A DNA stretch of 64,000 bases. It comes from an uncultured Chloroflexia bacterium. Its GTDB lineage: Bacteria; Chloroflexota; Dehalococcoidia; GIF9; UBA5629. How positions within the stretch are numbered: the stretch's first letter is position 1; each line of letters begins with the position of its first letter. Position numbers and translations under genes: made by a program. The notes under the pieces were generated by a model, which had not been told where the DNA came from, made no database searches, and saw nothing but the letters and a program-made list of their open reading frames with translations. The stretch is taken from contig OY970123.1 in NCBI GenBank assembly GCA_963705905.1, positions 839,921 through 903,920 on the forward strand, read 5' to 3'. Of the stretch, positions 16,741-52,595 are shown one piece after another.

Positions 16741-16782
16741 AATACCCGGTAGCCCTGGTAGAGCCTCCAAATAGACTTAAAC

Positions 16783-26416: not shown

Positions 26417-27190
26417 TCATTTAGCGATCAGCCGCCCGGCGATTTCGGGCGCCATCTCATGCACAAATTCAGTATTATATTCGCTGCGGACGAAGCGGAG
26501 CGGCGTAATCGATACCCGTTTATGCTCCAGCGCCCACAAATCGGTGCCGCTGGCCGGGGTATCCGTGCTGCGGTGCAATATCCAGTAGAATGTATGCTTG
26601 CCGTCAAATCCCTTTTCCACGCCTGCGGAATACTTCTTCTCGCCCAGACGCGTAACGTCTATACCTCGTATCTGCTTTAAAGGCAGGCTGGGCACATTCA
26701 CGTTCAAAAGCATCTTGCCCTTCATTTTCTTCCGTTTAATGTACCCGGCAACCTCCTTTGCAATCAGGGCCGCAGATTCAAACATGGGGTCCTCGAAAGA
26801 GTTCATCGAAACGGCTATGGACGGTATGTCATAAAAGAAGCCCTGCAATGCTGCGCCAACCGTACCTGAGAGAAATACGTCGTAGCTGCAATTGGGTCCC
26901 TGGTTTATGCCCGAGACCAACAGGTCGATGCCGCCGGGCATAATGACTTTCATGGCCATCAGGACGCAATCGGCGGGCGTGCCTTCCACCGAATATGTAT
27001 CGATACCGGCTATTTTCTCGTGTATCTTGGCCAGGCGCACCGGGTTATGCAGGCTCATCGAGGTGCCTACCCCGCTCTGCTCACGGTCGGGAGCGACAAC
27101 GGTAACTTTGCCCACCTCTTTCAGTTCTGAGACCAGAGACCATAAGCCATCGGCATTGATGCCGTCGTCATTGGTAACTAATATCTTCAA
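26417..27190 (-). CDS. surE: 5-prime/3-prime-nucleotidase SurE
   Basis: MKILVTNDDGINADGL N-terminus is diagnostic; 257 aa. Confidence 0.9.
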   Translation of the reverse strand: MKILVTNDDGINADGLWSLVSELKEVGKVTVVAPDREQSGVGTSMSLHNPVRLAKIHEKIAGIDTYSVEGTPADCVLMAMKVIMPGGIDLLVSGINQGPNCSYDVFLSGTVGAALQGFFYDIPSIAVSMNSFEDPMFESAALIAKEVAGYIKRKKMKGKMLLNVNVPSLPLKQIRGIDVTRLGEKKYSAGVEKGFDGKHTFYWILHRSTDTPASGTDLWALEHKRVSITPLRFVRSEYNTEFVHEMAPEIAGRLIAK

Positions 27191-27395
27191 TAAAAACTCC
27201 GTCGGGGAAACCGCATAATTTTAACATAGAGGGGCATACGTTATAAATTGGCCGGCGCGATATGATTGAGGATGAGTAAGCCTGTAGCGGACCTGGAACC
27301 GGACCCCAAGTTCGAAGAAAGCAAAGCACATACTATATTGCGATTTCAATTGGATACCGTCCTGTGGTACAGTAAGTTGTTAAAGGAGGCGTGGA

Positions 27396-29762
27396 ATGCT
27401 TAAAAGCGGGACGACGGCGGTGGGGCAGCCGGACTCAGCAAGGTTCGCCCGCATAAAGAAAGAGCTGCTCTCCGCCGGCGTTTATCTCTGCCCCGAGCGG
27501 GCCTGCCTGGTAACCGACTTCTTCAGGCGGCATGACGACCCGCGCAAACCGGTGACCGTGCGCAGGGCCGAAGCCCTCAGCTACATCCTGAGCAACAAGT
27601 CGGTGCGCATTTACCCCGACGAGCTTATTGCAGGCAATATCGGCAGCCGCCGCATATCGGCGCTGGTCCAGCCGGAGTTGGCCGGCGTCTTCATGGGCAC
27701 AGAGCTGCTAAGCATAGACCGCCGCAAGACGACACCGCTCCAGTGCTCCTGGCGGGACCGATTGAAGCTGCTGTTGGACGTATTCCCCTACTGGCTCACG
27801 CGCAATATGGCTTTCAGGGCCTTCATGCCGGACATCGGCCGGTTGCTGCGCTACGTGACCGACCAGCTCGACGCCCGTTATTACCTGATAAATGAGGCCG
27901 GCGGCATAGGGCATTTTCTCCCCAACTATGAGAGGATGCTCAATCTCGGTGTCAAAGGATATCTTGACCTTTTCTCTGATAAGGTTGGCCCGGTCTATGA
28001 TGCCGCCCGCATCGCCTGCGAGGGCGTGGTGCGCTATGCAGCAAGGCTGGCGGACGAGGCGGAGCGCCTGGCCGGTGAAGAGAAAGACCCTCACAGGTAC
28101 CTGGAACTCAAGGAGATCGCTCGTATATGTTGTAAGGTGCCTCAGGAACCCGCCCGTACCTTCCACGAGGCGCTGCAGTCCTTGTGGCTGACACATATGG
28201 CGGTCTGCCTGGAAAGCTTGAATTCGGCCATTTCTTTCGGCAGGATCGACCAGTATTTGTATCCTTTCTATGAGCGTGACCTCGCAGAAGGCATACTTAC
28301 ACGGGAAGGGGCGCTTGAACTGCTGCTGTGCTTCACGGCCAAGTGTGCCGAGCACGTATTCCTCATGTCCGAGAATCTGAGCCAGTATCACGGGGGCTAC
28401 CTGGTTGTACAGGCGGCAGTCGTCGGCGGCATGGACCGCGACGGCAACGATGCAGTCAACGACCTGTCATATCTCTTCCTGGACGTTATGGAGCAGGCCG
28501 GGCTGCGGGACCCTAATTACCAGGCACGCCTGCATCGAGGTTCGCCCGAGCCGTTCCTGAGGCGCGCCTGCGATGTGGTCAAGAAGGGCCATGGAGTTCC
28601 CGCCCTGTTCGGTGACGAGGCATGCGTGAAGTCACTGATTGCGCATGGCTACCCGGAGGAAGAGGCTCGCAACTACGGAGTGGTCGGCTGCGTGGAGCTG
28701 GCCCTGCCGGGAAAGAGCTTCTTCTCAACAGATGCGGGGCTGTTCAATCTGCCCATGTGCCTCGAGCTGGTATTAAACAGGGGCCGGAGGATGAAGGGAG
28801 GGCGCCGCGTCGGCGCGGATACGCCCGACCCGGAATGCTTCGAGAATATCGGGCAAGTGATCGAGGCTTTCAGAACGCAGGTCGGTTTTATGCTGGATCT
28901 CATGATCGAGAATTTGCAGGTTATGGAAAAGGGCAATGCGCTGTACCACCCCACTCCATTTTCCTCAATGCTGGTGGACGGTTGTCTGGAAACAGGCAGG
29001 GACGTCAGCGATGGTGGAGCGCTATACAACTCCAGCGGCATACAGGGTGTGGGCGTGGCAGACGTAGCCGACTCCCTGTCAGCTCTTGAGACGGTGGTCT
29101 TTGTGCAGCACCGGTACTCAATGTCCCAGGTCTTGAAGGCACTCAAAAACAATTTCGACGGATACGCTGTCATGCGCGCCGAACTGAATCGTGCACCCAA
29201 GTACGGCAACAATGAGCCTCTGCCGGATGGTCACGCCGGCATCGTGGCAGGCATTTTTCATGCCGCTCTGGCCGGACACCGCAATACCAGGGGCGGCCCC
29301 TATGTGCCGGGCTACTACACCGTCACCTGCCATATAGCCTTCGGCAGGCATACTGCGGCACTGCCCAGCGGCAGGTGGGCGGGCGACCCCTTTGCTCCCG
29401 GCCTGGGTCCATGCAACGGGTGCGACCACCTCGGCCCCACGGCAGTGATGAACTCTACGGCAAGTGTGGACGCCAGCTTATCGCCCAACGGTTACGCCCT
29501 GAACCTGCGTTTCGATCCGGCGACCGTGGCCGGGGAGCGTGGCACCGACATGCTCATGGCACTGACTCAGGGTTTCTTCGAATCGGGCGGGATGGAGGTG
29601 CAGTTTAACGTGCTGGATCCACAGATGCTTGAGGACGCCCGGCGGCATCCCGGGAAGTACCCGGGCCTTGTCGTGAGGGTGTCCGGCTACTGCGCCTACT
29701 TCGATGATTTGCCGGATGCAGCCAAGGGCGAGATCATCGCACGTACACGCTTCACGCCGTAG
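27396..29762 (+). CDS. glycyl radical enzyme (PFL2/glycerol-dehydratase-like clade)
   Basis: 788 aa; C-terminal glycyl radical motif RVSGYCAYF, single-Cys thiyl loop VGCVE; aaaggagg RBS. Confidence 0.85.
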   Translation: MLKSGTTAVGQPDSARFARIKKELLSAGVYLCPERACLVTDFFRRHDDPRKPVTVRRAEALSYILSNKSVRIYPDELIAGNIGSRRISALVQPELAGVFMGTELLSIDRRKTTPLQCSWRDRLKLLLDVFPYWLTRNMAFRAFMPDIGRLLRYVTDQLDARYYLINEAGGIGHFLPNYERMLNLGVKGYLDLFSDKVGPVYDAARIACEGVVRYAARLADEAERLAGEEKDPHRYLELKEIARICCKVPQEPARTFHEALQSLWLTHMAVCLESLNSAISFGRIDQYLYPFYERDLAEGILTREGALELLLCFTAKCAEHVFLMSENLSQYHGGYLVVQAAVVGGMDRDGNDAVNDLSYLFLDVMEQAGLRDPNYQARLHRGSPEPFLRRACDVVKKGHGVPALFGDEACVKSLIAHGYPEEEARNYGVVGCVELALPGKSFFSTDAGLFNLPMCLELVLNRGRRMKGGRRVGADTPDPECFENIGQVIEAFRTQVGFMLDLMIENLQVMEKGNALYHPTPFSSMLVDGCLETGRDVSDGGALYNSSGIQGVGVADVADSLSALETVVFVQHRYSMSQVLKALKNNFDGYAVMRAELNRAPKYGNNEPLPDGHAGIVAGIFHAALAGHRNTRGGPYVPGYYTVTCHIAFGRHTAALPSGRWAGDPFAPGLGPCNGCDHLGPTAVMNSTASVDASLSPNGYALNLRFDPATVAGERGTDMLMALTQGFFESGGMEVQFNVLDPQMLEDARRHPGKYPGLVVRVSGYCAYFDDLPDAAKGEIIARTRFTP

Positions 29763-29816
29763 ATGACACCCCCCGCAACATATGTTTGCCATATCTTTTA
29801 TATTATATTTTAATGC

Positions 29817-29845
29817 TTGTCCCCTTCGATGCATGGTGATATAAT
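29817..29845 (+). promoter_or_regulatory. sigma70-type promoter candidate for hdrA
   Basis: -35 ttgtcc (29817-29822), 17-nt spacer, extended -10 tgatataat (tataat at 29840-29845); about 90 nt upstream of the hdrA start. Confidence 0.4.
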
Positions 29846-29932
29846 CATGCGGAAGTCTAAATACCTGAAATTGTTCTATCTTCGGGCTTCTACTGATAGC
29901 CAGTAATTAAAATCGGTCCTTCCAAGGAGGTC

Positions 29933-34853: not shown

Positions 34854-36617
34854 ATGCCTTATAACCCCTTGAAAATGAGCGACTGGCAGATAGCCGAAGA
34901 GGCCGAGAAAAACATGCCCGAGCCGCTCGACTGGATAAAAAAGCTCAACCTGGAGAAAGGCGAGATCATCCCTTACGGGAAAGTTGCCAGGCTCGACTAT
35001 GCCAGGATCATGCGGCGGCTGGAAAACAAGCCGGACGGCAAATATATACAGGTCACGGGCATCACGCCCACACCCCTGGGAGAGGGCAAAAGCACCACCA
35101 CCTGCGGACTGCTGGAAGGCATGGGCAAGCGCAAATTGAACGTGGGCGGCTGCATCAGACAGCCCTCGGGCGGACCCACCATGAACATCAAGGGCACGGC
35201 CGCCGGCGGCGGCAATGCCCTGCTCATACCCATGACCGAGTTCTCCATGGGGCTGACCGGCGATATCAACGATATTACCAACGCCCACAACCTGGCCATG
35301 GTAGCAGTCACGGCGCGTATGCAGCACGAGCGGAACTACGATGACCGCAAGCTGATGACGCTTTCCAATATGAAAAGGCTCGACATCGACCCAACACGAA
35401 TCGAGATGGGCTGGGTGATGGACTTCTGCGCGCAGAGCCTGCGCAACATCGTCATCGGCATCGGCGGCAAGATGGACGGCTACACTATGCAGTCCAAGTT
35501 CCAGATCGCGGTCAGCTCCGAGCTGATGGCTCTGCTGGCCATCGTCAAAGACCTGGCCGACCTGCGCCACCGTATGGACCGCATCACGGTAGCCTACAGC
35601 AAGCACGGCGACCCCATCACCACGGGGGACCTGCAGGTGGGCGGCGCCATGACGGCTCTGATGCGTAATACGATCAACCCCACCCTTTGCTGCACGGCGG
35701 AATACCAGCCCCTCATGGTGCATACCGGCCCCTTCGCCAACATCGCCCTGGGGCAATCGTCCATCATCGCCGACCGTATAGGCCTCAAGATGTTCGACTA
35801 TCACGTCACCGAGAGCGGCTTTGCCGCCGATATCGGCTTCGAGAAATTCTGCAACGTGAAATGCAGGCTGAGCGATCTCAAGCCGCATGCCTCGGTGCTG
35901 GTAGCAACCGTGCGCGCCCTCAAGATGCACGGCGGCGGCCCGGTCATTGTGCCCGGACTGCCCATGCCCGGGGAATATTTGAAGGAAGACCTGGGCCTGC
36001 TGGAGAAAGGCATCCCCAACATGCTCCACCATATTAAGATCATTAAGGAGGCCGGGGTCTGCCCGGTGGTCTGCATCAACGTTTTCCATTCCGATACCAA
36101 AGCCGAGATAGCTATGGTCAAGAAGGCCGCCGAGCTGGCGGGGGCGCGCTGCGCCGTTTCGCGGCACTGGGAGTTCGGAGGTGAAGGCGCCCTGGAGTTG
36201 GCGGACGTAGTTAAAGAAGCCTGCAACGACGATAATGAGTTCAAATTCCTCTACCCGCCCGAGATGAAGCTGCGTGACAGGGTAGATAAGATCGCCCGCG
36301 AAGTCTACGGAGCGGATGGGACATCCTGGTCGCTGGCTGCCGAAACCAGGGCCAAGGCTTTGGAAGCCGATCCTGAGTACGACGACTATGCCACTATCAT
36401 GGTCAAGACCCCGCTCAGCCTGAGCCACGATCCTGCGCTCAAAGGCGTGCCCAAGGGCTGGATACTGCCTATCCGGGATATTATGGTCTATTCAGGCGCC
36501 AGGTTCCTCTGCTTCTTCGCCGGAGAGGTCAACCTTATGCCCGGCACGGGCTCCAACCCGGCCTTCCGCCGCATCGACATCGACCCCCATACCGGCAAAG
36601 TGCACGGGATATTCTAA
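34854..36617 (+). CDS. fhs: formate--tetrahydrofolate ligase
   Basis: 587 aa; [14 protein letters not shown]-loop and overall FTHFS pattern. Confidence 0.95.
36558..36617 (+). repeat. direct repeat copy 1 (native fhs 3-prime end)
   Basis: ccggccttccgccgcatcgacatcgacccccataccggcaaagtgcacgggatattctaa; re-occurs at 39936-39995 with 3 mismatches. Confidence 0.8.
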
Positions 36618-38047
36618 GAAGTTGCTAAAGCATAAAATTTGACGTCCTGCTTTAGCAACGGTAATTCAGAGGGAAATAATAATCCATCATCCCTTGAACC
36701 ATTGATGCCCTCCATAAGCTCTTCATTGAACAGAGTGAAAAAATTGTTGATCAGTTCCCGGTCCTGCTTGCTGTCACTGAGGTTCAAGCTAAAGGTGATG
36801 GTATCGTTGAAGGTGCTGAACCCCATCTGAAAATGCGCAGGGTATTTTATCGAGCCGGTCATGAAGGCATCGGCCACCGGCGTACCGCCGAATACCAGAA
36901 GGTTTTTGTCGATCCTGTCTAAATTTGTCATAGCGAAGAGCGGGTAATGCATGTTCTCACGGATTAATTTTTTGGCCCTGGCATAGGGGAACAATTGGAA
37001 TACCAGAGGCAAGGTCATCAGGCCGCCGAGCCCGGGGAAATGCCTCTTCCTTGCTTCCATTACCTCATGCACCCGCCCAGCGGTATCGTCGAATGCCTCA
37101 GCCTCGCCGGGTATGATATCGCACAAAATGAACGAGGAGAGGTTACAGATCGCCTGAGCCTTTTTGCCGGGCAGGTAGCGCCTGAGGTCGACCGTGCACG
37201 AGATGTTCAGCGGAACATCCCGCTTAATCTCCAGCAGACGGTAGAGAGCGCGGTAATAGGCGGCCAGCACCACGTCGTTGACGGTGAAATGCTTATCCGC
37301 ACAATATTTTTTCAGCAATAAATAACCGGGCCGCTCCAGCCTGCAAAGCTGCATATAGGGCCGCAGTCCGCCTTCCTCATTTCCTCCATCCCTTAATACA
37401 TATCCGCTGTCTTTCATATTGCCGGGCAAAAATAACAGCCTGGCCCTATCTATGAGATTGAGCTGATTAAAAATCTGGCAGACGCTGCGGGAACCGCCGA
37501 CACTGGATGCAGGACGGTAATGAGGGTCTCTCATCAGGCTGGTATAAGTTGAAGCCAGCAGGTACATATATTGCTTAAACCCGGCTGCATCGCTGACCAT
37601 GTGGTTGATGACCACGTTCAGCACGTCGTGTTGCGGGCCACGCGCCAGGGTTACCTGCACCTGGGGGCCTTCCAGGGCCGCTGTCCTGGAGACCAGCAGC
37701 CGCTTCAGGTTCTCATCTATATCATCGCTCTCGATAAAGGAGAACGCCTTATCATGATCAGCCCTGTCGATGCACTGCCAGTACGGACGGCGGCTGTCTT
37801 CCACGAAGCGGCAGCCCAGTATTGGCACGTCCTCCATTGTCAGCAACACGGCCTTTTTCAGCACATCACGGTCCAGCTTTCCGTCTAAGCTGACCACGCA
37901 GTGTACCTGGTGGTCATTGTACCTGTATTCCTCGAGCAGAAACTGCAGCTTATCGAACGATTCCGCCTTGAAACGCTTTTCGCTACCGCCGCCCGTTTTA
38001 TTTAACGCGGTTTTTTCTTCCATGAGGTCTTTTTTCATCTTCAACAC
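36614..38047 (-). CDS. condensation-domain / WS-DGAT superfamily acyltransferase-like protein
   Basis: 477 aa; HxxxD motif in [11 protein letters not shown] at the typical position; no further assignment possible. Confidence 0.4.
36621..36659. terminator. bidirectional hairpin between convergent fhs and acyltransferase-like gene
   Basis: Perfect 12-bp inverted repeat gttgctaaagca ... tgctttagcaac with a 15-nt loop. Confidence 0.4.
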
Positions 38048-38351
38048 TCCTTTAATAATTTGCGCGCTGTTTTACGCTTACACCAGGATTTTACTATTTT
38101 CGTTTTAATAATGCAAATCAGTAATTATTATATTGCTTTTTAAACTTATTATAATTATAATATTAAATATCAGTGGGCTCCTGTCGGCCATTATGCATAA
38201 GTGCTACCTGCTGATAATAACAGGCGCACACAAGCGGGTGCAGGCATGCCGGAAGCCGCTTGATTAATGCAGCAACAATAATGAGAGATTTTGTTTAATT
38301 TATTGATTTTTCCAAGAAATAGACTAATATATCGGGTAACAGGAGGATGCT

Positions 38352-38774
38352 ATGCAGAAACTATTCAGCCAGTGCCCTGCTTGCGGTGGCCAGCTTGTCG
38401 TTACAGAGTGCAAATGTACCAACTGCCAGCTACAAATGCGTGGTGAATTCAGGTCAGGGCCGCTGGCCGCGCTCACCGATGATGAGATGACCTTTACAAA
38501 GGTCTTCCTGTCCACCCGCGGCAATCTCAGTGAAGTTGAGAGGATCCTGGGTATTTCTTATCCCACCATCCGCAACAAGCTGGATGAAATTAACAATGCC
38601 ATCAATCGTATCGACGTGGCTTCAGTGTCCCGGCGGGCAAAAGGTGAGGCTGCGCCGGACGTAAGTCCCGATGCTGCTGCAGACATCCGGAAGGACATTT
38701 TGCAGAAGGTTGCGGACGGCCAACTATCGCCGGCGGAAGCGGTGCAGAAGCTGCGGGAAACCGGAGAAGACTGA
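38352..38774 (+). CDS. DUF2089-type zinc-ribbon/HTH protein
   Basis: CPACGGQLVVTECKCTNCQLQMRGEF zinc ribbon then helix-turn-helix-like segment (LGISYPTIRNKL). Confidence 0.55.
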   Translation: MQKLFSQCPACGGQLVVTECKCTNCQLQMRGEFRSGPLAALTDDEMTFTKVFLSTRGNLSEVERILGISYPTIRNKLDEINNAINRIDVASVSRRAKGEAAPDVSPDAAADIRKDILQKVADGQLSPAEAVQKLRETGED

Positions 38775-39907
38775 TGTCCGGCACGGAACGCACATGGACG
38801 GCTGACGCTTTCGACGCGGTCGCCGTCAGGGCACGTGACTGCAAGGTTGAGATCGAGGGGACCGAGGATGACGATGTCCGCCTCGAGGCCGACCACGGGC
38901 CGGATTTCAGTTTGGAGATAACCGGCCGCCGGCTGCAGCTCGGCACATCCATGCAAAAGGGCGAAGCAAAGTTCACCCTGCATCTGCCAAAGCATAAAGC
39001 CTGGGCAGTGGACCTGTTTTCAGGGCAGACGCAATTCAAAGCCGTGAATATCAGGGCACGCCTGAACTTAATGCCCGGCAAGGGTGAAATCCAGGTCGAG
39101 AACTGCAGCGGGGCCCTTTCTGTTATATCCGGCAAGGTGAATATCCGGTTGAAGCTTTTCAGCGAAACTGAAATACCGGAATTGCCACTTCTTGCCGCGG
39201 AATGGCCGTTGATCAACCTTGGAGACCGTGAAAGCTGGCCGGACTGGTGGACGGGTTATTGGGACCAGATGGGCGGGGAGTTCGATGAAAGGATCTTAAA
39301 ACGGTTTTTCAGTCAAGCTAAAAATAAAAAGAGAATTTCCGGTATTAACCTCCAGGCAGGCAAGGGTGACCTGCAACTGGAAGATATAACGGTCAGTGAA
39401 TTTATCGTCAGGTGCGGTAAGGGCGATGTGAAGCTGAAGGGGGGACGTGTGGCGGACTTCGACCTTGACCTGCTTAAAGGCAATTTTGAATGTGAATCAT
39501 GTATGCCTGAGGGTGATTGGAATATCAGTGTAAACCGCGGCGACATCCACCTTTCCCTGCCTGCTGATACAAGGGCACGCCTGGACGTCGCCACGCGGCA
39601 GGGTGACATCCAGTCCACCACGCCGATGGTACGCGTCACACGCCAGGGTCCCGAGGCCTGGCATGGCGGAAGGATGGTTGGCACAATGGGTACTAACCCT
39701 GAGGGAAAGATGCCCGGGGTCCACCTGGCCACTCTGCATGGAGATATTAAAATCGAGACCCGGCGTCCGCCGGGTCGCCGGGATGAGGATCAGCGGGTCG
39801 GGAACGCAGATTCATATTATACGCCGCTGTCTATTTTAAAAGCTTTAAGCGAAGGACGGATCAGCGTTGACGAAGCCGAACGGCTGTTGCATAGTTTAGA
39901 TTCTTAG
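38774..39907 (+). CDS. DUF4097-type beta-helical repeat protein (putative adhesin-like, YvlB-like)
   Basis: Repetitive G-x-V/I-x-I/L beta-strand ladder; start overlaps the DUF2089 stop (TGATG). Confidence 0.5.
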   Translation: MSGTERTWTADAFDAVAVRARDCKVEIEGTEDDDVRLEADHGPDFSLEITGRRLQLGTSMQKGEAKFTLHLPKHKAWAVDLFSGQTQFKAVNIRARLNLMPGKGEIQVENCSGALSVISGKVNIRLKLFSETEIPELPLLAAEWPLINLGDRESWPDWWTGYWDQMGGEFDERILKRFFSQAKNKKRISGINLQAGKGDLQLEDITVSEFIVRCGKGDVKLKGGRVADFDLDLLKGNFECESCMPEGDWNISVNRGDIHLSLPADTRARLDVATRQGDIQSTTPMVRVTRQGPEAWHGGRMVGTMGTNPEGKMPGVHLATLHGDIKIETRRPPGRRDEDQRVGNADSYYTPLSILKALSEGRISVDEAERLLHSLDS

Positions 39908-39935
39908 CAATATGTGATCTTACCCTGTATTTAAC

Positions 39936-39995
39936 GCGGCCTTCCGCCGCATCGACATCGACCCGCATACCGGCAAAGTACACGGGATATTCTAA
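39936..39995 (+). repeat. direct repeat copy 2 (orphan copy of fhs 3-prime end)
   Basis: gcggccttccgccgcatcgacatcgacccgcataccggcaaagtacacgggatattctaa; 57/60 identical to 36558-36617, same orientation, not attached to an ORF. Confidence 0.8.
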
Positions 39996-40028
39996 TATTG
40001 CCCTGCCCAAATGGTATCTAGCATGTTT

Positions 40029-42605
40029 TTAGACTTTAAAGGTCAGGTTCAGGCTATGGGCAAGCTCTACGCTGTCTCCATTCTCAATCGTATGTTTGCC
40101 GCTGCCCTTGATTTGTGATCCGTTTAGCGTGGTGCCATTTGTGCTTCCGAGGTCCTGTATATAGTACAGGCCGTTTTCATAAGTGACCAGGATATGCTGC
40201 CGGGAGATTGTGTCGGTCTTGTCCGGTGACATCAGCGGGCGGAAATCTTTCCGGCCCAACGGCCTGCCGGCAACCGGCATAGTAATCCCTGCCGACGATA
40301 CAAATTTGGCCGGAAGCCCGATTTCAACGATTGTTGTCATTGGCGTCAGTGTAGCCGGTTGTGTAGCCGGGATGGTGGTGGCTGAGGTAAAGTAGCCTGT
40401 GTTTGTGCCGGTGCCCGACGCATGGGCCACAGGAGGTTTTTTCACGATCAGGGCGGTTATGACCACAGACGCAACAGCGGCCAATCCGGTTAGCAGCAGG
40501 TACAGCGGCCACAGGTTGACGGCCGTAGCTTTGCTGTTGCCGGTTCCATTGGCATTCAAGACGTTCCCGATACTGTTAATGAGCTGGCTGGCATCTAACG
40601 TGCCGCCGGATGAAGTTCCGGAATTATCCGTGTCTACATTTACGCCGGTGCTAACGGCGTATGCAGGAGGAGTGTAGGAAGCTACGCTAGGCGCAACGGT
40701 GACAGTAGTGCTGGCGCTAATTGTGCCCGCGCCGTTGTAGGCCGACACAGTATATGTAGTTGTGGAGGCAGGAGTCACATCGACTGAGCCGGTATTGGCG
40801 ACTGATCCCACCACCGGGGATATAGTGACCGTATCCGCGTTATTTACAGTCCAGGACAATGTAACTGACTGGCCGGGCTGAACGTAATTGGGGTTGGCCG
40901 TGAAGGAACTGATCACCGACGCCCCATACGTTTCACCATAGCTGCTGAGGTACGGTGCGACCGTTACAATTGTGCTGGCATTTACCGCACCCTGGCTGTT
41001 GTAGGCGTACAGTGTATATGTGGTCGTGTAAGCAGGCGTTACGGCTAACGAGCCGGTGTTGTCGACCGATCCCACTGTTGGAGATATCGTGACAGCGCTT
41101 GCGCCGCTCACATTCCATAACAATGTGGCTGCTTGCCCCGATTGAATGTAATCGGGGCTGGCCGTGAATGAACCGATCACCGGCGCATATGTGGACAGCG
41201 TATAATCAGGACCATACGGATAAGTGGGGTAGGTTGGGTTATCCTGTGGGGGGTAGGTCGGATTAGTCTGCGGGGGCCAGGTCGGATTAGTCTGCGGGGT
41301 CCAGTTATGGGGTGTAAATGGCCCATGACGGCCCGTACTATTATCCGAGGGTGTCGGGAAAGGCGGGAAATGCGTAGTGCTGTTATCCCAGGACGGGAAA
41401 TGCGGAAAATTCACCGTGCTGTTATCCCAGGATGGTGGAAAATGTGGAAAATTCACTGTTCCATTATCCGAGGGCGCCGGGAAAGGCGGAAGATGCGCCG
41501 TTCCGTTATCCCAGGACGGGGGGAAATGGTGCCGCGATGGATCGGTGCCGGCTGCGGCCGGAGCCGGGAGAATTCCAGCTGCCTGAGCTATCGGCGGTAA
41601 AACGTCGGAAACCGTCGGTGAGGTTGAAGTGGTAACCGCGAGAACAGGATCCGTCGACAAACCTGTTGTAGAGCTTACTTCAGGAGTAGCTGGCACCGCT
41701 AGAGCGGGTGCAGTTACTACTGTCGCCGAAGCAAGGGGTGGTGGAGGAGGAGCCGGCGGCTCAGTAGTCGTCAACTGTGCGGTCTGATTATCCGAAAGCT
41801 GACCGGCGGCCGCTTGACCCGGCAGAGCATCCGGCGCAGCGGTTGTGCTTGTAGCTGTCGTTATCGCCGGTACTGGAGCAGGTGTGTCTGCGACTACCGT
41901 TGTTGGAGTGGTAGCTGTCGTCGCCGTTACGGGTGCCAGAGCGGGCGTATCTGCAACTACCGTTGTTGAAGCGGTAGCCGTCGTCTCAGTTGCGGGCGCC
42001 GGAGCGGGTGTATCTGCGACTACCGTTGTTGGAACGGTATCTGTCGTCGCCGGTGCGGGCGCCGTAGCGGGTGTGTCTGCGACTACCGTTGTTGGAGGGG
42101 TAGCTGTTGTCGCAGTTGCCGGCACTGGAGCCGGTGTGTCTGCGACTACCGTTGTTGGAACGGTAGCTGTTGTCGCAGTTGCGGGCATTGGAGCGGGTGT
42201 ATCTGCAACTGCCGTTGTTGGAGAGGTGGCTGCGGTCGCCGTTGCGGGCGCTGGAGCGGGTGTGTCTGCGACTACCGCTGTCGGAGCGGTATCTGTCGCC
42301 GCCGGTGCCGGCGCTGGAGCGGGTGTGTCTGCGACTGCCGTTGTTGGAGAGGTGGCTGCGGTCGCCGTTGCGGGCGCCGGAGCGGGTGTGTCTGCGACTG
42401 CCGCTGTTGGAGCAGTATCTGTCGCCGCCGGTGCCGGCGCCGGAGTGACTGCATCCGTTGTCGCTACGGTCTGATTATCCGAAAGCTGATTTACGGCCGC
42501 TTGACCGGGTATCAAATCCGCCATGGCATACGCCGGTGCCAGAGGGACCAGCAGCAAGCAGCCGACCAATAATGCCGCTGCCATGAAGAGCAATGCTTTT
42601 TTCAT
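40029..42605 (-). CDS. large single-pass membrane protein: signal peptide, Ala/Thr/Pro tandem repeats, two Ig-like domains, TM helix, cytoplasmic C-terminal FHA domain
   Basis: N-terminal MKKALLFMAAALLVGCLLL; ~21-aa ADTPAPAPATATAATSPTTAV repeats; NSTVNFPHFPPSWD repeats; two ~90-aa paralogous beta domains; TM LWPLYLLLTGLAAVASVVITALIV; C-terminal FHA-like domain (GRPLGR...ISRQHILV...YIQDLGSTNGTTLNG). Confidence 0.75.
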   Translation of the reverse strand: MKKALLFMAAALLVGCLLLVPLAPAYAMADLIPGQAAVNQLSDNQTVATTDAVTPAPAPAATDTAPTAAVADTPAPAPATATAATSPTTAVADTPAPAPAPAATDTAPTAVVADTPAPAPATATAATSPTTAVADTPAPMPATATTATVPTTVVADTPAPVPATATTATPPTTVVADTPATAPAPATTDTVPTTVVADTPAPAPATETTATASTTVVADTPALAPVTATTATTPTTVVADTPAPVPAITTATSTTAAPDALPGQAAAGQLSDNQTAQLTTTEPPAPPPPPLASATVVTAPALAVPATPEVSSTTGLSTDPVLAVTTSTSPTVSDVLPPIAQAAGILPAPAAAGTDPSRHHFPPSWDNGTAHLPPFPAPSDNGTVNFPHFPPSWDNSTVNFPHFPSWDNSTTHFPPFPTPSDNSTGRHGPFTPHNWTPQTNPTWPPQTNPTYPPQDNPTYPTYPYGPDYTLSTYAPVIGSFTASPDYIQSGQAATLLWNVSGASAVTISPTVGSVDNTGSLAVTPAYTTTYTLYAYNSQGAVNASTIVTVAPYLSSYGETYGASVISSFTANPNYVQPGQSVTLSWTVNNADTVTISPVVGSVANTGSVDVTPASTTTYTVSAYNGAGTISASTTVTVAPSVASYTPPAYAVSTGVNVDTDNSGTSSGGTLDASQLINSIGNVLNANGTGNSKATAVNLWPLYLLLTGLAAVASVVITALIVKKPPVAHASGTGTNTGYFTSATTIPATQPATLTPMTTIVEIGLPAKFVSSAGITMPVAGRPLGRKDFRPLMSPDKTDTISRQHILVTYENGLYYIQDLGSTNGTTLNGSQIKGSGKHTIENGDSVELAHSLNLTFKV
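41835..42480. repeat. ~63-bp tandem repeat array (about 10 units) inside the FHA-protein gene
   Basis: Recurrent gctgtcgt.gccg.t.c.ggagc.ggtgtgtctgcgactaccgttgttgga..ggta units; also generates the spurious 209-aa plus-strand ORF 41845-42474. Confidence 0.75.
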
Positions 42606-42908
42606 TTCTTATTTGCCTGCTAATAATAATCTAGTACAAGAATGTTAACTAAAGATTTTTCCGTCTATCTTTAATTGAACATCCTTTATAATTAAATCTA
42701 CTCCGGTCTGCACTGTCATGCTTGACTTCAGTCTGACAATCAATTGACAGTTAACTGACAAAAATACCGGAGCTGGCAGGATAATAAGAAAGAAAATGCG
42801 GACTCAGCGGCAAACTGCCGGGAGATAAAGAGAGAAGAGGTTAGACCCCCAAGATGGAAAGGCGCATTGCTTTGACTTCTCCGAATAGGTAAAAATCGCA
42901 CCTAAAGG

Positions 42909-43367
42909 TTACTGAATCAAACCTGTTCTGGGATCACCCCACGTGCTGAAATCCATTACTGCATCGGAGCCATCCGTAAACCAGCCTTTAATTATGTAAG
43001 TGTCATCCGTCTTGACAATAGGATGCCCGAACCACGTGGCCGTGTTCTCGACGGTTGTGCTGTTCGGGAGCAGGACCGAGTATATAAACGCATCTGCCGA
43101 ATTCGGATCGAAACCTGCCGTTGCCCACTGCCGCATGTAATCCATCCTGTCGGCAGTGTCGGACTGGCTCGAAAGGAAGGTCTGATTGATATACCCGTTA
43201 GTATATATATCCGCTACATACCTCAGTGCCTGGTTCTCGGTGACGGCCATATTTGACTTCAGCGCATATACCGTAATAGCAGCCGGCCCCTGCGCCGAAA
43301 CAATTGAAGGTGTAACAAACAGGATCAACAACAGTGCCAGGTTAAGCAGGACAACCAATTTTTTCAT
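42909..43367 (-). CDS. small secreted protein, hypothetical
   Basis: Signal peptide MKKLVVLLNLALLLILFVTPSIVSAQG; 152 aa. Confidence 0.45.
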   Translation of the reverse strand: MKKLVVLLNLALLLILFVTPSIVSAQGPAAITVYALKSNMAVTENQALRYVADIYTNGYINQTFLSSQSDTADRMDYMRQWATAGFDPNSADAFIYSVLLPNSTTVENTATWFGHPIVKTDDTYIIKGWFTDGSDAVMDFSTWGDPRTGLIQ

Positions 43368-43718
43368 TTTATCTACCTCCGTTATGTAATGTATGTAATC
43401 TTCGGGGAAGTCAAAGCCAAACTTAAACGATTTTTTTAGTGCATTACGGGCACTATCAGGAATTATCCACTTACCTTATTTGAATAGGCCCTTTTTAAAA
43501 TATAGAACGCTAAGCAGGGCTTTTTAGTTTAGGGGTTTGATAACCGGCATCAATGTGCAAATAACAGATGGAAAAGCAATTGATTACAATAAGTTCTAAA
43601 TGTATAATCATCGCTGTCCATGCTTGACCGTTTCTCAAATAGAAAATCCACGAAGGCAGTCACGATTCAGTTGAATACTGCCATTGCGGGGCTCGATTTA
43701 TGATTGGAGGATAGCAAT

Positions 43719-44507
43719 ATGCAGTTTAAAACTTTACTCTTTGACATAGCCGACAGTGTCGCCACGATCACTCTGAACCGTCCCGAAGCCAACCACGCCA
43801 TCGACCTGCAAATGGCCAAAGACCTGTGTTACGCCGCTATGCACTGCAGCGAGAACTCTGCCGTACGGGCAATTCTGATCACTGCAACCGGCCCCGTATT
43901 TTGTGCAGGCGGAGATTTAAAGGCCATGGCCGGTGAAGTCGAAAAAACTCCCGGTCTTCTCAAGGAAATGTCCAGCTACCTCCACCTTGCCATCTCACGC
44001 CTGACACGCGGGGCGCCGCCGGTCGTCATTGCAGTCAACGGTATTGCTATGGGCGCCGGCATGAGCCTTGCCTGTGCGGGCGATATAGCAGTGGCCGCCC
44101 AGTCTGCCACTTTTGCGGTAGCCTATACGCAGGTCGGACTCACGCCGGACGGGGGCCTCACATATTTCCTTCCGCGCCTGGTCGGGCTAAGGCGGGCCTC
44201 AGAGCTCGTTCTGACCAACCGGCGTTTGTCCGCCAAAGAAGCGCTGGATCTCGGTCTCGTCACCGAAGTGGTGCCTGATGCTGAGCTGATGAACCGTGCA
44301 CGGACGATCACCGGGCAACTGGCTGCGGGTGCAACCCGGGCTTACGGCGCCGCCCGCAAGCTTATCCATGGCGGCCTCTCATCAACGCTGGAAACGCAGA
44401 TGGAGTTTGAAAGCCAGTCCATCGTGGATATGGCGCGTACGGCAGACGCTCATGAAGCATTCACCGCTTTCGCCGAGAAGCGCAAGCCGAAATTCCAGGG
44501 TAAGTGA
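43719..44507 (+). CDS. enoyl-CoA hydratase/isomerase family protein
   Basis: Start at the ATG after a ggagg RBS; crotonase motifs TGPVFCAGGDL. Confidence 0.8.
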   Translation: MQFKTLLFDIADSVATITLNRPEANHAIDLQMAKDLCYAAMHCSENSAVRAILITATGPVFCAGGDLKAMAGEVEKTPGLLKEMSSYLHLAISRLTRGAPPVVIAVNGIAMGAGMSLACAGDIAVAAQSATFAVAYTQVGLTPDGGLTYFLPRLVGLRRASELVLTNRRLSAKEALDLGLVTEVVPDAELMNRARTITGQLAAGATRAYGAARKLIHGGLSSTLETQMEFESQSIVDMARTADAHEAFTAFAEKRKPKFQGK

Positions 44508-44616
44508 TAAGATCGCCGGTGAGGTTTACAGACCAGGACGGGGCGTAATAACCATTTTCGCTATTACGCCGCATCCGAAATGTCAATTTAGGGGTGTGAC
44601 AGACCCCGCCTTCCTT

Positions 44617-45789
44617 TTATAGAGCGATTGCCCCTTTTTTCAGCATCTTAGTGGGCTCGAACCACTTTATTCCTGTCTTCTTGGCTATGGCCTCGCATCT
44701 CTCGGCCACCTTGTCCCAACCCATTTTCTGTCCCAGCGCGAACGGGCCCGCAGCTCGGCCGCTGCCGTACACCATGGCCATATCTATCTCGGCAGCACTC
44801 TTGGCTACACCCTGCTCCAGCAGCTTGGTGCCTTCGTTCACCTGGATGGCCACCATGTCGGCCAGGTCGAAGTTAGGCTCGGTCTTGGTCAGGTCGATGT
44901 TGGGCCTGTTACCGCCCGGCCACTCGAAGTTGCCTTTGCCGGTTTTCTTGCCCAACTCGCCGGCCTCGACCTTCTTGGCCAGCCAGGGCCGCGGAGCGAA
45001 GTCCTTGGTGAGAGTGGCTGCATAGTATTTGGCGCCGTTAAACGATATATCTAGCCCGGAGTAGTCCATCGTCTCGAACGGGCCCATCGGCGCTCCCGTC
45101 GACCTTACCTTGGCGTCCACGCCCTCAGGGTCAACCATGCCCTTCTCCCTCAGCCATGAGAGGTACATGCCGGAAGGTGCGTTCATGCGGTTGAAGATGA
45201 AGCCCGGCGTATCTTTCTCAACTCTGACAACCACCATCGGGCCCCTGAAGTTCTTCCAGCCTTTTACCAGGTCGTAGGCCACGTTCATGGTCTCGTCGGA
45301 GGTCTTGTCGCCGCGGATAACCTCGACCAGGGCCATCATGGCCGGCGGATTGAAAAAGTGCACGCCGCACACTTTGTCCTGGCGTTTGGTGGCCGAACCG
45401 ATCTTGGTAATGCTCATAGTGGAAGTATTGGAGGCCAGTATGGCATGCTTGGGAGCCGCCTCGTCCATTTCTTTAAATGTCTTTTGTTTAAGGTCCAATA
45501 TTTCGGGGGCCGCCTCGATGGCGAAGTCCGCGTCTTTCACGGAGTCCTTGAGCACAATGAAGCCCTTGATACTGCCCATGATCTTGTCCATGGCTTCCTG
45601 CGTCATCTTCTGCTTGGAGACCTGCTTGCCCAGGCTGTCCTTGATCTTCCCGATACCCTTATCCACAAATTCCTGCTTGATATCATAGAGGTTAACCTTG
45701 TATCCGGCCATGGCCGCCAGTTCGCCTATCCCATGGCCCATGTCGCCGGCGCCGATCATGGCGACCGTCTTGACTTCTTCAATCTTCAT
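44617..45789 (-). CDS. 3-hydroxyacyl-CoA dehydrogenase (long form)
   Basis: VAMIGAGDMGHGIGE NAD-binding motif, HFFNPP motif; 390 aa. Confidence 0.85.
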   Translation of the reverse strand: MKIEEVKTVAMIGAGDMGHGIGELAAMAGYKVNLYDIKQEFVDKGIGKIKDSLGKQVSKQKMTQEAMDKIMGSIKGFIVLKDSVKDADFAIEAAPEILDLKQKTFKEMDEAAPKHAILASNTSTMSITKIGSATKRQDKVCGVHFFNPPAMMALVEVIRGDKTSDETMNVAYDLVKGWKNFRGPMVVVRVEKDTPGFIFNRMNAPSGMYLSWLREKGMVDPEGVDAKVRSTGAPMGPFETMDYSGLDISFNGAKYYAATLTKDFAPRPWLAKKVEAGELGKKTGKGNFEWPGGNRPNIDLTKTEPNFDLADMVAIQVNEGTKLLEQGVAKSAAEIDMAMVYGSGRAAGPFALGQKMGWDKVAERCEAIAKKTGIKWFEPTKMLKKGAIAL

Positions 45790-45876
45790 TTGATCAACTC
45801 TCCTTTAAAGTTTTTCTTTGCTCCAGCGAAGCATTATAGCAGGGAACGGCGCTCTGTTGAAGAAGCAGGTCAAAGA

Positions 45877-45914
45877 TATAGCTTTGCCCTCCTCTGTCCC
45901 TTAAGCTAAAATCA
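45877..45914 (+). repeat. direct repeat A flanking AT-rich insertion
   Basis: tatagctttgccctcc-tctgtcc-cttaagctaaaatc; matches 48922-48957 (tatagctttgccctcc-ccacctc-cttaagctaaaatc). Confidence 0.55.
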
Positions 45915-45995
45915 CAATTTTTGTCTTACACATAGATTTACCGAGCATCCGCCTCTGTCTACTAAATGAAGCAATTTAGCGTAATGCTAATAATG

Positions 45996-47365
45996 CTATT
46001 GTTTTGGCTGAAAGGCTTCTATCTTTAAATGACTAATTTTAATCAATTGAAGGACTGCATAATCCTTTTGCATATCAAAATAAAAATCCCCACGAAATGG
46101 AGGATCGATAGAATGATCGATTATTTCATGGCAAGTTGCCATCATAAATGGAATTAACTCATTACAGATACGACAAGGTAGTCCAATTACTTGACCATCC
46201 GGATGCTGCTCCATTACATGTATATAGTAATCACGAATCTCCCCACTAGCGATTAACTCACCACAACTGCATTTCAGTCGACTATTTTTGTCAGCAACGG
46301 TGGCTTCGTTAAGATAATTTGGACCATACCTAAAATCCCATAGCGAAGCCAGTTTGGATTCAGTCTGCCCAGACGTTAGTTGGTAACTCCAATTGCCACG
46401 AGATAAACTCATGCGAAGCGATTTCCAAATGTTCCATGCATTCGGTTTCAAATTTTGTCCAGCCACTTTAGCAGTAAAAATACGTGCGGCAATACCAGCA
46501 GCAAGATCAGCTATCTGGATACCAATCGAACTAGCGGATATTTCTTCAGAACACGCAATAAAATTATGCATCGGCGATGGCGATCTGGATAAAAATTCAT
46601 AAGTAAAATCTAGTATTTCGCCAAATTGGGTGTCCTGATCTCTTATTAATCGAGCCTTTAAATTGTGTGATCCGAGAGCAGAATCCAGAAAAATCAATGA
46701 GGGGAAAAATGCAGTAACCTGACAATTGGACAAATGTATATTTTTAGGAGCGCCTTCTAAACGCTCTCCAAAACGGTAAATATCATCCAACCCAGACATA
46801 ATGACATGGGCTATATGAACGACGCGTTGATCTGGATGCAAACTTAATTGTCTACTAAGAATAAGGCCAATACGTTTAAGCTCGGGAACATCATCGGAAT
46901 GACACGCCCGTAAAAACCTTGTCAATAATTCGCTGGAAATTGATGAATAGATAACATTATGGAAAAAACGCCTGAACTCTATAGACATCATATACCTATC
47001 TACCTTCGGGTTGTGATCGGGATCTAAATAGGTTGAGGCAATCCGGACACAAATCTCAAATTTTTTCTCAACAATACTTATATAGATAGTGGTTCCAGCT
47101 TCATATACTAGCTGCATGATCTTTGACCAACGTCTCCTTCCTCTGGAAGATTGCCATAACTTAACAGAACTCAATTCGTAGGATAGTGGAAGACATTCTT
47201 TCTCCAAAAAAGAGATAGCTGGGATGCAAGTAGAGTTTCTTGATTCTTCGTTAACAACACCCAGGCATATACGAAAAATAAATCAGTTTTAGAGAGTAAA
47301 TCGGAGCCGGTATTGCCGGATTCATCGCAATAGATTGTTGCTATCTCAGCAGTTATAGGCCTCAT
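45996..47365 (-). CDS. DUF3800-family protein with Cys-rich C-terminal extension; apparent frameshift in a T6 run near 47195
   Basis: N-terminal IYCDESGNTG motif in ORF 47171-47365, QIADLAAGIA motif in ORF 45996-47207. Adding one T to tctcttttttgg merges the frames. AT-rich. Confidence 0.5.
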
Positions 47366-47395
47366 ATACAGCGCAAAGTATTAGATGCAAAATAA

Positions 47396-48004
47396 TTACG
47401 ATTTTTGATCATTCGATATGGACTCTAAAAAGCTGGCTAAACTAAGTGCGAGATCCACATAACTGGCAGCTTGTTCCCAAGATATATTGAATTGAGCCTC
47501 ATGAACAGCCTGATTCCGCAGTTTCCGAAGACGATCATACAAGTCTCCAGTTCCATACGGAAGTTCGCCTGATAATGTTAGTTTATGCAATACATCGTGT
47601 TCTGCCTGCATACCCTTCGATGGTATTTCATATTTCAACGCCAATTTCCCTAAAGCATTTTCTACCGAGCGCCAAGCCTCAGCTACTGCGGCTCTAGGAT
47701 AATCATAGGCAAGATCAATTAGATTCTGGGATGGAGAAACAGAGATTTCGATTGGCTGCCTAGCAGATGGCGTTGGAGGCAATTTCAATGCCTTTGCCTT
47801 ATCCTCGGCGAATCTGAGATCACGGCGAAATTTGATTCCCAAATCCTTATAACGCAATTCCTCAATAGCTGCAATAGCTTGGGCAAGTGGTTTCCTAAAA
47901 ATCAATACTATTGTCAGGACTGTCAAAGGCCAAGCTAGTACCGACACGAAATTCAAAATTAAATGTGCAATTCCCATATTAAATCCACAACTTAATAGAT
48001 TCAA
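47396..48004 (-). CDS. membrane-anchored DUF4145 (HEPN-like) protein
   Basis: N-terminal TM helix, C-terminal LRKLRNQAVHEAQFNISWEQA matching the DUF4145 R-x4-H signature. Confidence 0.45.
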   Translation of the reverse strand: MNLLSCGFNMGIAHLILNFVSVLAWPLTVLTIVLIFRKPLAQAIAAIEELRYKDLGIKFRRDLRFAEDKAKALKLPPTPSARQPIEISVSPSQNLIDLAYDYPRAAVAEAWRSVENALGKLALKYEIPSKGMQAEHDVLHKLTLSGELPYGTGDLYDRLRKLRNQAVHEAQFNISWEQAASYVDLALSLASFLESISNDQKS

Positions 48005-48029
48005 ATAATATGACCCGGTAGGTTAAGAT

Positions 48030-48842
48030 TTATATGTTCTCAATTTGATTCGCTGCTTTCGCTAGCTTGTCCTTGGTCTGGCCAAGGTTAACTACGGATT
48101 TTAGATGATTCTGCCTTTTCTCACGAGCGATATACCAGTCTTCAAATAATCTTTCAATCAGACCAATTAGCAATTCCGCTTCATTGGGTTCAATATCTAT
48201 AATAATATCTACCTTTTTTGCCATATGAGCGCCAATATTACCTACCTTGCGAACCGCATCTATCGCATCCCACGTAAGCGGATCCACTTTATCCTGGATC
48301 GCCTCTATTTCTTTTTTTAGAGATGGACGTTCCAGTCCCCAATAATCACGTATCATGCCTTGCAAGCAGCGCCGTGCCAAAGTTGCTGACGATTTCGGGC
48401 TCAATTCTTTGATAAGACATGCCTCCCGATAATCAGCCAAAATAGGGGTGGGTATATAATCAGGAAAAATTTTTGCCCCAGAAGGTGGGACCAATTGCCA
48501 TGTATGCAACTCTTCTCCACTATGAGGTCTTGATCCGCTATAGCGCTCCACCTTAGAAAGACGAATTGTTAAAGTGAACCTCCTACAATCAGGATTTGGG
48601 CAAACGACAAACGCCCAATTTAAACATCGCTCTCCATCGGAATTCTCAATGTCTAAAAATACCTCACCTGTGGTCCTATCTTCATGTGTAACCGTTGTAG
48701 GTCTATTGCAATAAGGACAGGTCCAAGGGAACTTTCTGGTTGCAGGCGGAGGTATCAGGAACCCATTCATAGTTGAATTATACACCATGCGATAATCGAC
48801 AAAAAGATAAAGAATGAATAAAATCAGGATGCTGATAGCCAT
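48030..48842 (-). CDS. zinc-ribbon + DUF4145 (HEPN-like) protein
   Basis: CPYCNRPT...CPNPDCRRF ribbon; DUF4145 core LARRCLQGMIRDY ... AIDAVRKVGNIGAHM. Confidence 0.5.
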   Translation of the reverse strand: MAISILILFILYLFVDYRMVYNSTMNGFLIPPPATRKFPWTCPYCNRPTTVTHEDRTTGEVFLDIENSDGERCLNWAFVVCPNPDCRRFTLTIRLSKVERYSGSRPHSGEELHTWQLVPPSGAKIFPDYIPTPILADYREACLIKELSPKSSATLARRCLQGMIRDYWGLERPSLKKEIEAIQDKVDPLTWDAIDAVRKVGNIGAHMAKKVDIIIDIEPNEAELLIGLIERLFEDWYIAREKRQNHLKSVVNLGQTKDKLAKAANQIENI

Positions 48843-48921
48843 AAATTTACTATGTTTTAATTTGATTCAATATACAAAAATCAAATCCAAATACCGATTG
48901 TTCAGACTAAGTTCATCTAGC

Positions 48922-48957
48922 TATAGCTTTGCCCTCCCCACCTCCTTAAGCTAAAAT
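48922..48957 (+). repeat. direct repeat B flanking AT-rich insertion
   Basis: See repeat A; the two copies bound a ~3.0-kb low-GC segment. Confidence 0.55.
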
Positions 48958-48963
48958 CTTGCT

Positions 48964-49194: not shown

Positions 49195-49198
49195 CCGC

Positions 49199-52560: not shown

Positions 52561-52595
52561 GCAGGGATTTATCCCTCACCCCCTGCGAGTTCCTT

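Follow-up and report, generated by a model that had tools for sequence, protein, structure and literature searches.

In a 64,000-nucleotide (nt) stretch of the genome of an uncultured Dehalococcoidia bacterium (Chloroflexota; contig OY970123.1, positions 839,921 to 903,920), here called the window, the formate-tetrahydrofolate ligase gene fhs is followed by a three-gene cassette and then by a second copy of its own 3′ end. Comparison with relatives shows that the insertion of this cassette duplicated the fhs terminus, and that the old terminus was displaced by 3.4 kb and retained its original flank. It also shows that, in this Dehalococcoidia clade, insertions have recurred at the end of fhs. 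Insertions are stacked over ~12.5 kb between fhs and queA; one layer of this stack is the cassette, which is not a recent one-off, as it occupies the same place in a second, distant fhs clade. With moderate confidence we interpret it as a cis-mobilizable islet that has no integrase of its own, lies in a hot spot of tandem accretion at the fhs terminus, and was moved by a recombinase that resides elsewhere or has been lost.

Duplication of the fhs 3′ end

The insertion is defined by the following features, given in window coordinates (aa, amino acids; ORF, open reading frame).

34854–36617, + strand, fhs (formate-tetrahydrofolate ligase), the target gene; intact 587-aa ORF, Pfam FTHFS 1–556 of 556, E = 3e-207
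36555–36617, + strand, repeat copy 1, attL-like; last 20 codons and TAA of fhs, at present its functional terminus (repeat alignment)
36614–38047, − strand, cargo gene 1, condensation-fold / WS-DGAT / PapA5-like acyltransferase (weak Pfam and NCBIfam hits only)
38352–38774, + strand, cargo gene 2, DUF2089 zinc-ribbon and helix-turn-helix (HTH) protein, putative regulator (Pfam)
38774–39907, + strand, cargo gene 3, DUF4097 'toastrack' / LiaG-like protein with a SHOCT-like C-terminus (family scans)
39933–39995, + strand, repeat copy 2, attR-like; displaced original fhs terminus on its original downstream DNA (repeat alignment and empty site at locus L084)

An earlier note, made from the sequence of the window alone, had described a 60-nt direct duplication of the fhs 3′ end with 57 of 60 identical positions. 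This is exactly what we recovered for 36558–36617 versus 39936–39995, and the repeat finder extended the pair to 63 nt (36555–36617 versus 39933–39995; 60/63 identical, 95%) in the same orientation; the three differing positions are 36558, 36587 and 36602. The 59-mer 36559–36617 occurs twice in the window when up to three mismatches are allowed, its second copy carrying two, and no match arose in any of 100 dinucleotide-preserving shuffles. Identity is lost just upstream of 39933, 25 nt past the DUF4097 stop codon, and again right after the TAA at 39995. Copy 2 is thus an isolated fragment of 59–63 nt and not a longer fhs pseudogene. The fhs gene itself is intact despite the insertion, its ORF covering the full Pfam FTHFS model. 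The cassette between the repeats (36618–39932) is a self-contained three-gene cargo unit, and the insertion measures 3.38 kb.

An empty site identifies the original terminus

With the fhs protein as query, genome and metagenome collections yielded 160 loci, and further cassette loci were reached through homologues of the acyltransferase-like and DUF4097 proteins. The host of the window is an uncultured member of the Dehalococcoidia from metagenomes of the peat or soil type. At locus L084, where the fhs protein is 97% identical to that of the window (~90% at the DNA level), the three cargo genes are absent and fhs, with a single tail copy, is directly followed by the gene for the FHA-domain protein. 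This is the empty site that the earlier note had predicted. The sequence after the L084 stop codon (TATTGCCCT... / TATTGCCCTATC...TTAGACTTTAAAGGTCAGGTTCAGG) aligns with the DNA after copy 2 of the window, not with that after copy 1. Therefore, the original end of fhs is copy 2, and the gene is at present completed by copy 1.

The same arrangement as in the window is present in five independent assemblies (L081, L082, L083, L166 and L167), one of them with a 2.47-Mb contig, and so is no assembly artefact. Apart from the repeat itself, nothing speaks for such an artefact or for copy 2 as the remnant of a truncated second fhs paralogue, the latter named in the earlier note as an outcome that would overturn its reading. 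Homology to fhs starts 25 nt behind the DUF4097 stop codon and is confined to the last 63 nt of the gene, so that copy 2 comprises a 63-nt fragment only, and the DNA beyond it is the ordinary fhs downstream flank as judged from L084. We regard both explanations as excluded.

Carriers of the cassette form two separate clades

At L166 (~95% protein identity) the layout is the same as in the window, with both repeat copies. More distant carriers are L168, with fhs, the cassette and an orphan tail of ~54 nt (acyltransferase-like protein 72% identical, fhs DNA 80%), and L173/L174, where the orphan tail behind fhs and the cassette measures 57 nt. Beyond copy 2, L168, L173 and the window have entirely different genes. 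In three independent assemblies (L169, L170 and L171) fhs itself is missing and the cassette is accompanied by an fhs tail of exactly 139 nt with 97.3% identity to L173; at L169 the tail lies at 2934–3072, and in all three the tail and cassette stand beside a gene for a cNMP-binding regulator. Tail and cassette have thus been relocated or captured together in recent times. Still more distant homologues (acyltransferase 53%, DUF4097 58%) are found in unrelated contexts without fhs.

The earlier note had held that an ancient fixed duplication would be indicated if all relatives carried the cassette with both repeats; most relatives lack the cassette. In a neighbour-joining tree of fhs, the gene that alone serves as host phylogeny here, the carriers fall into two separate clades (the window with L166, and L168 with L173), and between and beside them stand many cassette-free lineages in which fhs is directly followed by queA. 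Such a patchy distribution would require at least two gains or about six losses.

Repeated insertions between fhs and queA

Most members of the clade have queA within 5–15 nt behind fhs, or only ~45 nt and DUF2905 between the two genes (L005, L007, L085–L089). The ancestral arrangement is fhs directly followed by queA. In the window, the ~12.5 kb of stacked insertions separate fhs from DUF2905-queA, with the youngest layer nearest to fhs. Beyond the cassette, the stack and its far edge consist of the following features.

39996–43699, − strand, older layer: original fhs-downstream spacer, FHA-domain gene and 152-aa ORF
40029–42605, FHA-domain protein with 21-aa tandem repeats
42909–43367, 152-aa ORF
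43719–44507, + strand, enoyl-CoA hydratase (ECH) gene; directly after fhs in L001 and L041
44506–44542, + strand, decayed fhs fragment after the ECH gene; 30/37 identical to fhs 36284–36320 (−333 to −297, counted back from the fhs end)
44617–45789, − strand, 3-hydroxyacyl-CoA dehydrogenase (HCDH) gene
45874–48958, no strand, second repeat-bracketed islet; 40-nt direct repeats 45874–45913 and 48919–48958, 85% identical
48964–50206, + strand, DUF2905 and queA, immediate neighbours of fhs in the ancestral order; they delimit the hot spot on its far side

The layer at 39996–43699 is wholly absent from L001 and L041; L084 possesses the FHA gene and lacks only the 152-aa ORF. Within the FHA gene we observed eight tandem copies of a 63-nt (21-aa) unit at 41793–42508 and repeats of 39–42 nt at 41335–41520, and the length of the protein varies from 858 aa in the window to 777 aa in L166 and 808 aa in L084.

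The decayed fhs fragment behind the ECH gene (44506–44542) was not matched in score by any of 300 shuffles. An assignment of this remnant to the −105 part of the fhs tail proved wrong, as the explicit alignment placed it at −333 to −297. In L001, ECH directly follows fhs and is itself followed by a homologous, longer decayed fhs remnant of ~95 nt (12594–12688), which probably joins the −333 region to the −97..0 tail through an internal deletion. From this remnant to the HCDH gene, L001 carries at 12754–17181 a 981-aa DUF4062-NACHT/STAND NTPase and two ORFs without a family match, which indicates that the site just past the old tail remnant is variable too.

A different single orphan gene follows fhs in L003 and four other assemblies of its lineage, and behind it lies its own tail copy of ~53 nt. 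A homologue search with this cargo protein found no relatives, so no integrase-bearing parent element was reached. At least three unrelated cargos are thus bracketed by fhs-tail repeats: the cassette, the L003 orphan gene and ECH (in L001 and the window).

The second islet spans ~3.0 kb with 38–42% GC and contains a DUF4145 / PD-T7-4-like defence gene besides a weak DUF3800 match and a 202-aa ORF. At this site, L084 lacks the islet and has a single copy of the repeat. The 40-nt repeat corresponds to the short spacer that separated fhs from DUF2905 in the original arrangement. Different cargo, a dCMP deaminase and a Schlafen/AlbA_2 protein, occupies the islet position in L166. At the near edge of the islet, the gene call is 456 aa with a weak DUF3800 match in L082 and L083, whose fhs protein is identical to that of the window, and 331 aa in L081.

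Divergence of the cassette and its repeats

Next, we compared the repeats among carriers. In each clade, both copies resemble the fhs of that clade. Codon differences between the copies are synonymous in 12 of 16 cases (with the L168 pair hand-corrected to four synonymous and one non-synonymous), which indicates that the two copies diverged mainly within functional fhs genes. The window and L166 share an identical copy 2 and differ in copy 1 at three synonymous sites. Between L168 and L173, the left 29 nt of copy 2 are identical and the right 25 nt contain six differences; the cassette genes beside it are 72–84% identical.

Synonymous divergence (dS) between the window and L166 is 0.05–0.07 in the cassette and 0.17–0.27 in the flanking core genes. 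A cassette-sized transfer tract between these two lineages was considered and dropped: the repeats do not delimit the low-divergence tract, which extends ~400 nt further than copy 2 and enters the FHA gene; divergence reaches 10% in the cassette's own intergenic region; and other regions are equally mosaic. Elsewhere in the window, the region of a PFL-like glycyl-radical enzyme (27000–29900) is only ~1% diverged from L166, while neighbouring core genes are 5–6% diverged, a pattern that points to frequent homologous recombination between the two lineages. Between clades, the dS of the cassette is 0.5–1.2, at or below the 1.1–1.9 of fhs and folD; these values, which are near saturation, fit horizontal spread.

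A part of these data would also suit an ancient duplication that entered once in the ancestor of the clade, remained immobile, was lost many times through its repeats and was otherwise kept alike by gene conversion. For the pair L168/L173, cassette dS (0.63–1.30) is similar to that of the flanks (1.16–1.30); DNA identity between the window and L168 is 78–85% in the cassette and thus near the 80% of fhs; and direct repeats of 60 nt permit precise loss. However, about six or more independent precise losses would be needed. At a synonymous divergence above 1 an unselected orphan is expected to have decayed, but copy 2 of the window is still 95% identical to copy 1, the reading frame stays open and the stop codon is retained in four lineages, and the differences between copies are mostly synonymous. 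Conversion by the local copy 1 fails to explain the identical left 29 nt of copy 2 in L168 and L173, since copy 1 differs there. The between-clade dS of the cassette at or below that of the flanks, near saturation as it is, also speaks against an immobile duplication, which in addition leaves the repeats around the L003 gene and ECH unexplained. We regard this history as quite improbable.

Search for recombination machinery

Gene calls and Pfam annotations were checked for recombinases in L081–L083, L164–L166, L168, L169 and L173–L180, and L001–L004 were scanned with Pfam; the 160 fhs loci were screened for cassette homologues and orphan fhs tails only, not for recombinases. In agreement with the earlier note, no recombinase was found in the cassette or at ~2–62.5 kb of the window: no integrase or transfer gene was detected when the three cargo proteins were scanned with Pfam, NCBIfam and PADLOC, and the only transposase gene in the window is one of the rve DDE family (53935–54981), 14 kb from the cassette. 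Resolvase or Recombinase domains are lacking among the annotated window genes, and it is the acyltransferase-like gene that adjoins copy 1. Downstream of fhs, L002 has housekeeping genes and L001 the NACHT/STAND gene, and an integrase was found neither there in L001–L004 nor at any carrier locus. Rfam and ARAGORN found no tmRNA gene in the window.

Two classes of element could be set aside. No pair of terminal inverted repeats joins the two cassette ends, and together with the absence of a transposase from the cassette this rules out a transposon with target-site duplication. A prophage or satellite of the e14/icd type does not match the locus either, as no integrase lies beside the repeat and no viral contig with the fhs tail was found.

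Site-specific integration or homologous recombination

The earlier note had read the repeat as the footprint of site-specific integration into a gene terminus. The duplicated tail, the displaced terminus and the empty site in L084 support this reading; the recombinase-mediated step is one that we infer. In such an event, the fhs tail (attB) would recombine with a mimic of this tail on a circular form of the cassette, and the two repeats would correspond to attL and attR. That the right edge lies at the stop codon fits an element-borne mimic kept only as far as is needed to restore the gene. Without a recombinase of its own, the cassette would resemble a cis-mobilizable element (CIME), with the enzyme encoded elsewhere in the genome, supplied by a partner element, or lost. 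Recombination between or through the repeats could then also remove the bracketed unit precisely or transmit it.

Four lines of evidence lead us to favour site-specific recombination. First, the repeat ends at the stop codon in every case: the right edge is exactly this codon in the window, L168, L173 and L003, and the sequences past the two stops are unrelated. Second, the left edges of two unrelated cargos nearly coincide. They lie at −63/−59 in the window, −57 in L173 and −54 in L168, so that the cassette family ranges from −63 to −54, and at about −54 for the L003 cargo. Third, the site has been used repeatedly. Fourth, there is a precedent in the ssrA islands of Dehalococcoides, about half of which lack an integration module (PMC3146451). 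The patchy distribution of the carriers, the mostly synonymous differences between the copies and the conservation of copy 2 also count in its favour.

Several results weigh against this interpretation. The left edge of the duplicated fhs segment varies, from about −333 or more in the ECH remnant to −63, −57 and −54, and the 40-nt repeat of the second islet is a different, non-overlapping sequence just past the fhs stop; one fixed crossover site therefore cannot account for all layers. By eye, no conserved motif is apparent at the cassette-side junctions of different cargos. A recent site-specific event across clades would be expected to leave donor/recipient hybrid copies, and none are visible. 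Divergence between the window and L166 follows a mosaic typical of general recombination, with limits that do not coincide with the repeats. Integrase or resolvase domains are absent from the cassette and from the window between ~2 and 62.5 kb, no recombinase was found at the carrier loci or downstream of fhs in annotated relatives, and all four repeat-bracketed units at the locus lack one. Moreover, no viral contig matched the fhs tail as a phage attP in scans with two DNA patterns and one peptide-based scan, and the plasmid collection gave no match to the whole cassette.

The alternative that these results bring forward is spread by homology without any recombinase, with the tail repeat as a portable homology arm. 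The repeat would have originated in an illegitimate event, for example a chromosomal circle of fhs tail plus cargo that re-inserted in Campbell fashion, and RecA would have spread the unit, with the left crossover in the body of fhs and the right crossover pairing copy 2 with the tail of the recipient. Any fhs-bearing recipient would suit, regardless of its downstream DNA, and the genes past copy 2 are indeed entirely different in L168, L173 and the window. A right edge that marks the first joining point of cargo past the stop codon and a left edge that is a random breakpoint lead one to expect just the observed edges, fixed at the stop and variable upstream (−333, −63, −57, −54). Both copies resemble the local fhs allele of their clade, as repeated homologous exchange would give; the tail and cassette in the unrelated context of L169–L171 demonstrate that illegitimate capture occurs; the genome is visibly a recombination mosaic; the neighbouring islet uses a separate repeat; and a recombinase was not found anywhere annotated.

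This alternative has to explain, however, at least three to four independent repeat-creating events within the same ~100–330 nt, which need a systematic cause, and left edges of two unrelated cargos that are nearly the same (about −54 to −59). A stretch of 54–63 nt is a short arm for RecA, and the tails of the two clades share identical runs of ~10 nt only, which would make transfer across clades very inefficient. Spread by homology is the main rival, which we take seriously and yet think unlikely. The more specific proposal, that the cassette needs no dedicated recombinase at all because its ~60-nt copy of the fhs end is its own arm for ordinary homologous recombination, strikes us as similarly doubtful. 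If true, it would make the fhs–queA junction of these Dehalococcoidia a recombinase-free, additive gene-capture site. In a variant of this proposal, a trans-acting recombinase would serve a whole family of integrase-less fhs cassettes, in an integron-like division of labour.

Genes, spacer and hairpin of the cassette

The gene content is as the earlier note had described it, with a convergent acyltransferase-like gene and a coupled DUF2089 and DUF4097 pair. The acyltransferase-like gene encodes 474/477 aa, and its stop codon overlaps that of fhs. Its Condensation match of 28 bits is below the Pfam cut-off of 30.6 bits. The start of DUF4097 overlaps the stop of DUF2089 in the sequence TGATG. 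The GC content of the cassette is host-like. Two further features lie within it.

38048–38351, no strand, divergent-promoter intergenic region; 90% mean column identity across clades
36621–36659, no strand, hairpin with a 12-bp perfect stem, inside the C-terminal coding extension of the acyltransferase-like gene

The acyltransferase-like gene is divergent from the pair of DUF2089 regulator and sensor-like DUF4097 genes, and across clades the spacer between them is better conserved (90%) than its neighbouring genes (72–85%), although it is 10% diverged in the close pair of the window and L166. It contains two ATTAATGC boxes and a conserved palindrome at 38231–38262, which are probably operators for the DUF2089 protein. 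This conserved spacer with its boxes and palindrome, the zinc-ribbon/HTH protein and the LiaG-like 'toastrack' protein together suggest, with low confidence, that the cassette could be a self-regulated module of the envelope-stress type that controls a lipid/polyketide-type acyltransferase.

The earlier note had placed the hairpin exactly at the junction. The 12-bp stem exists, but it is not a junction feature. The coding extension that holds it is specific to the window and L166, in the latter of which one stem pair is broken, and L168 and L173 lack the segment altogether. The stem is not followed by a T-run, and the folding energy is ordinary (z = −1.28). The hairpin was rejected as an attachment-site feature or terminator, and it is probably not part of the insertion mechanism.

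Other repeats in the window

A tRNA-Glu gene (23341–23416, − strand) and a fragment resembling a tRNA 3′ end (16714–16738) bracket 6.6 kb at 16714–23416. The fragment is in the same orientation (22/25 identical, E = 0.05), and genes of the radical-SAM, TIR-domain and DUF4276 families lie in the segment together with a 451-aa ORF. The arrangement resembles that of a further island without an integrase, here at a tRNA site of the classical kind. The 1.5-kb stretch between the radical-SAM and TIR genes harbours a 69-nt direct repeat (18662–18730 versus 19075–19143, 81%), with one 48-aa ORF call and no Rfam match. A cluster of 130-nt and 41-nt direct repeats with AAATTCCAAATTCC motifs (52585–53111) lies just upstream of the rve-family transposase gene.

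Comparison with known systems

A literature search for fhs as an integration site or islet attachment site found nothing relevant. A core gene of the Wood-Ljungdahl and C1 pathway, fhs is not known as an islet target from the papers searched. The locus offers a clean test case for how small cargo cassettes move in streamlined genomes, by a trans-acting enzyme or by homology alone, and orphan gene-end copies are a cheap signature for such hot spots in metagenome-assembled genomes.

In Escherichia coli, e14 and phage 21 insert into icd and bring a substitute 3′ end, so that the gene stays functional and its original end is orphaned at the far end of the element; these are prophage-type elements with their own integrase next to the attachment site. 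Likewise, fhs remains functional and its original 3′ end is displaced, but the fhs cassette has no integrase. Additive flexible genomic islands and tycheposon-like units of streamlined marine bacteria are small cargos stacked beside a conserved gene between partial gene-end repeats. Their hot spots are tRNA or tmRNA genes, and many units lack a recombinase, although integrase-carrying members are known. The fhs cargos are similarly stacked between gene-end repeats without a recombinase, but at a protein-coding target.

CIMEs are decay products of integrase-encoding integrative and conjugative or integrative and mobilizable elements, and are mobilised by related elements at the same site (PMC5704250). 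For the ICESt1/ICESt3 family at fda of Streptococcus thermophilus, both CIMEs and tandem accretion are described (Pavlovic et al. 2004, as cited in PMC5704250). The fhs cassette shares with the fda CIMEs an integrase-less unit between attL/attR-like repeats, an intact housekeeping gene end, stacking, and empty sites in relatives. It differs from them in its target gene and phylum and in that no integrase-encoding partner was found at fhs. The repeats at fhs, of 54–63 nt and in one older layer of at least 333 nt, are also longer than that of the fda family, which is reportedly 27 bp.

The closest parallel in lineage is provided by the islands of Dehalococcoides that are stacked downstream of ssrA between repeats of its 3′ end and are a major source of strain-level variation (McMurdie et al. 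2011, PMC3146451). An integration module is present in 16 of 31, and the rest were proposed to be cis-mobilizable; each 20-bp repeat has a conserved 15-bp motif beside it, and the DsiB/DsiA serine recombinase module lies next to attL (PMC3146451). The units at fhs occur in the same bacterial class and are likewise arranged in tandem behind a single-copy essential gene and separated by repeats of its 3′ end. In contrast to ssrA, fhs is a protein-coding target whose repeat, of 54–63 nt, terminates with the stop codon; no conserved motif was found beside it, and no integration module. Integrase-less islets at gene ends are thus already known, and what is new here is the target gene fhs, the lineage, and the lack of a recombinase in every unit at the site. 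The pattern of islands stacked behind one essential gene thereby extends from ssrA in cultured Dehalococcoides to a protein-coding gene in uncultured Dehalococcoidia of peat and soil.

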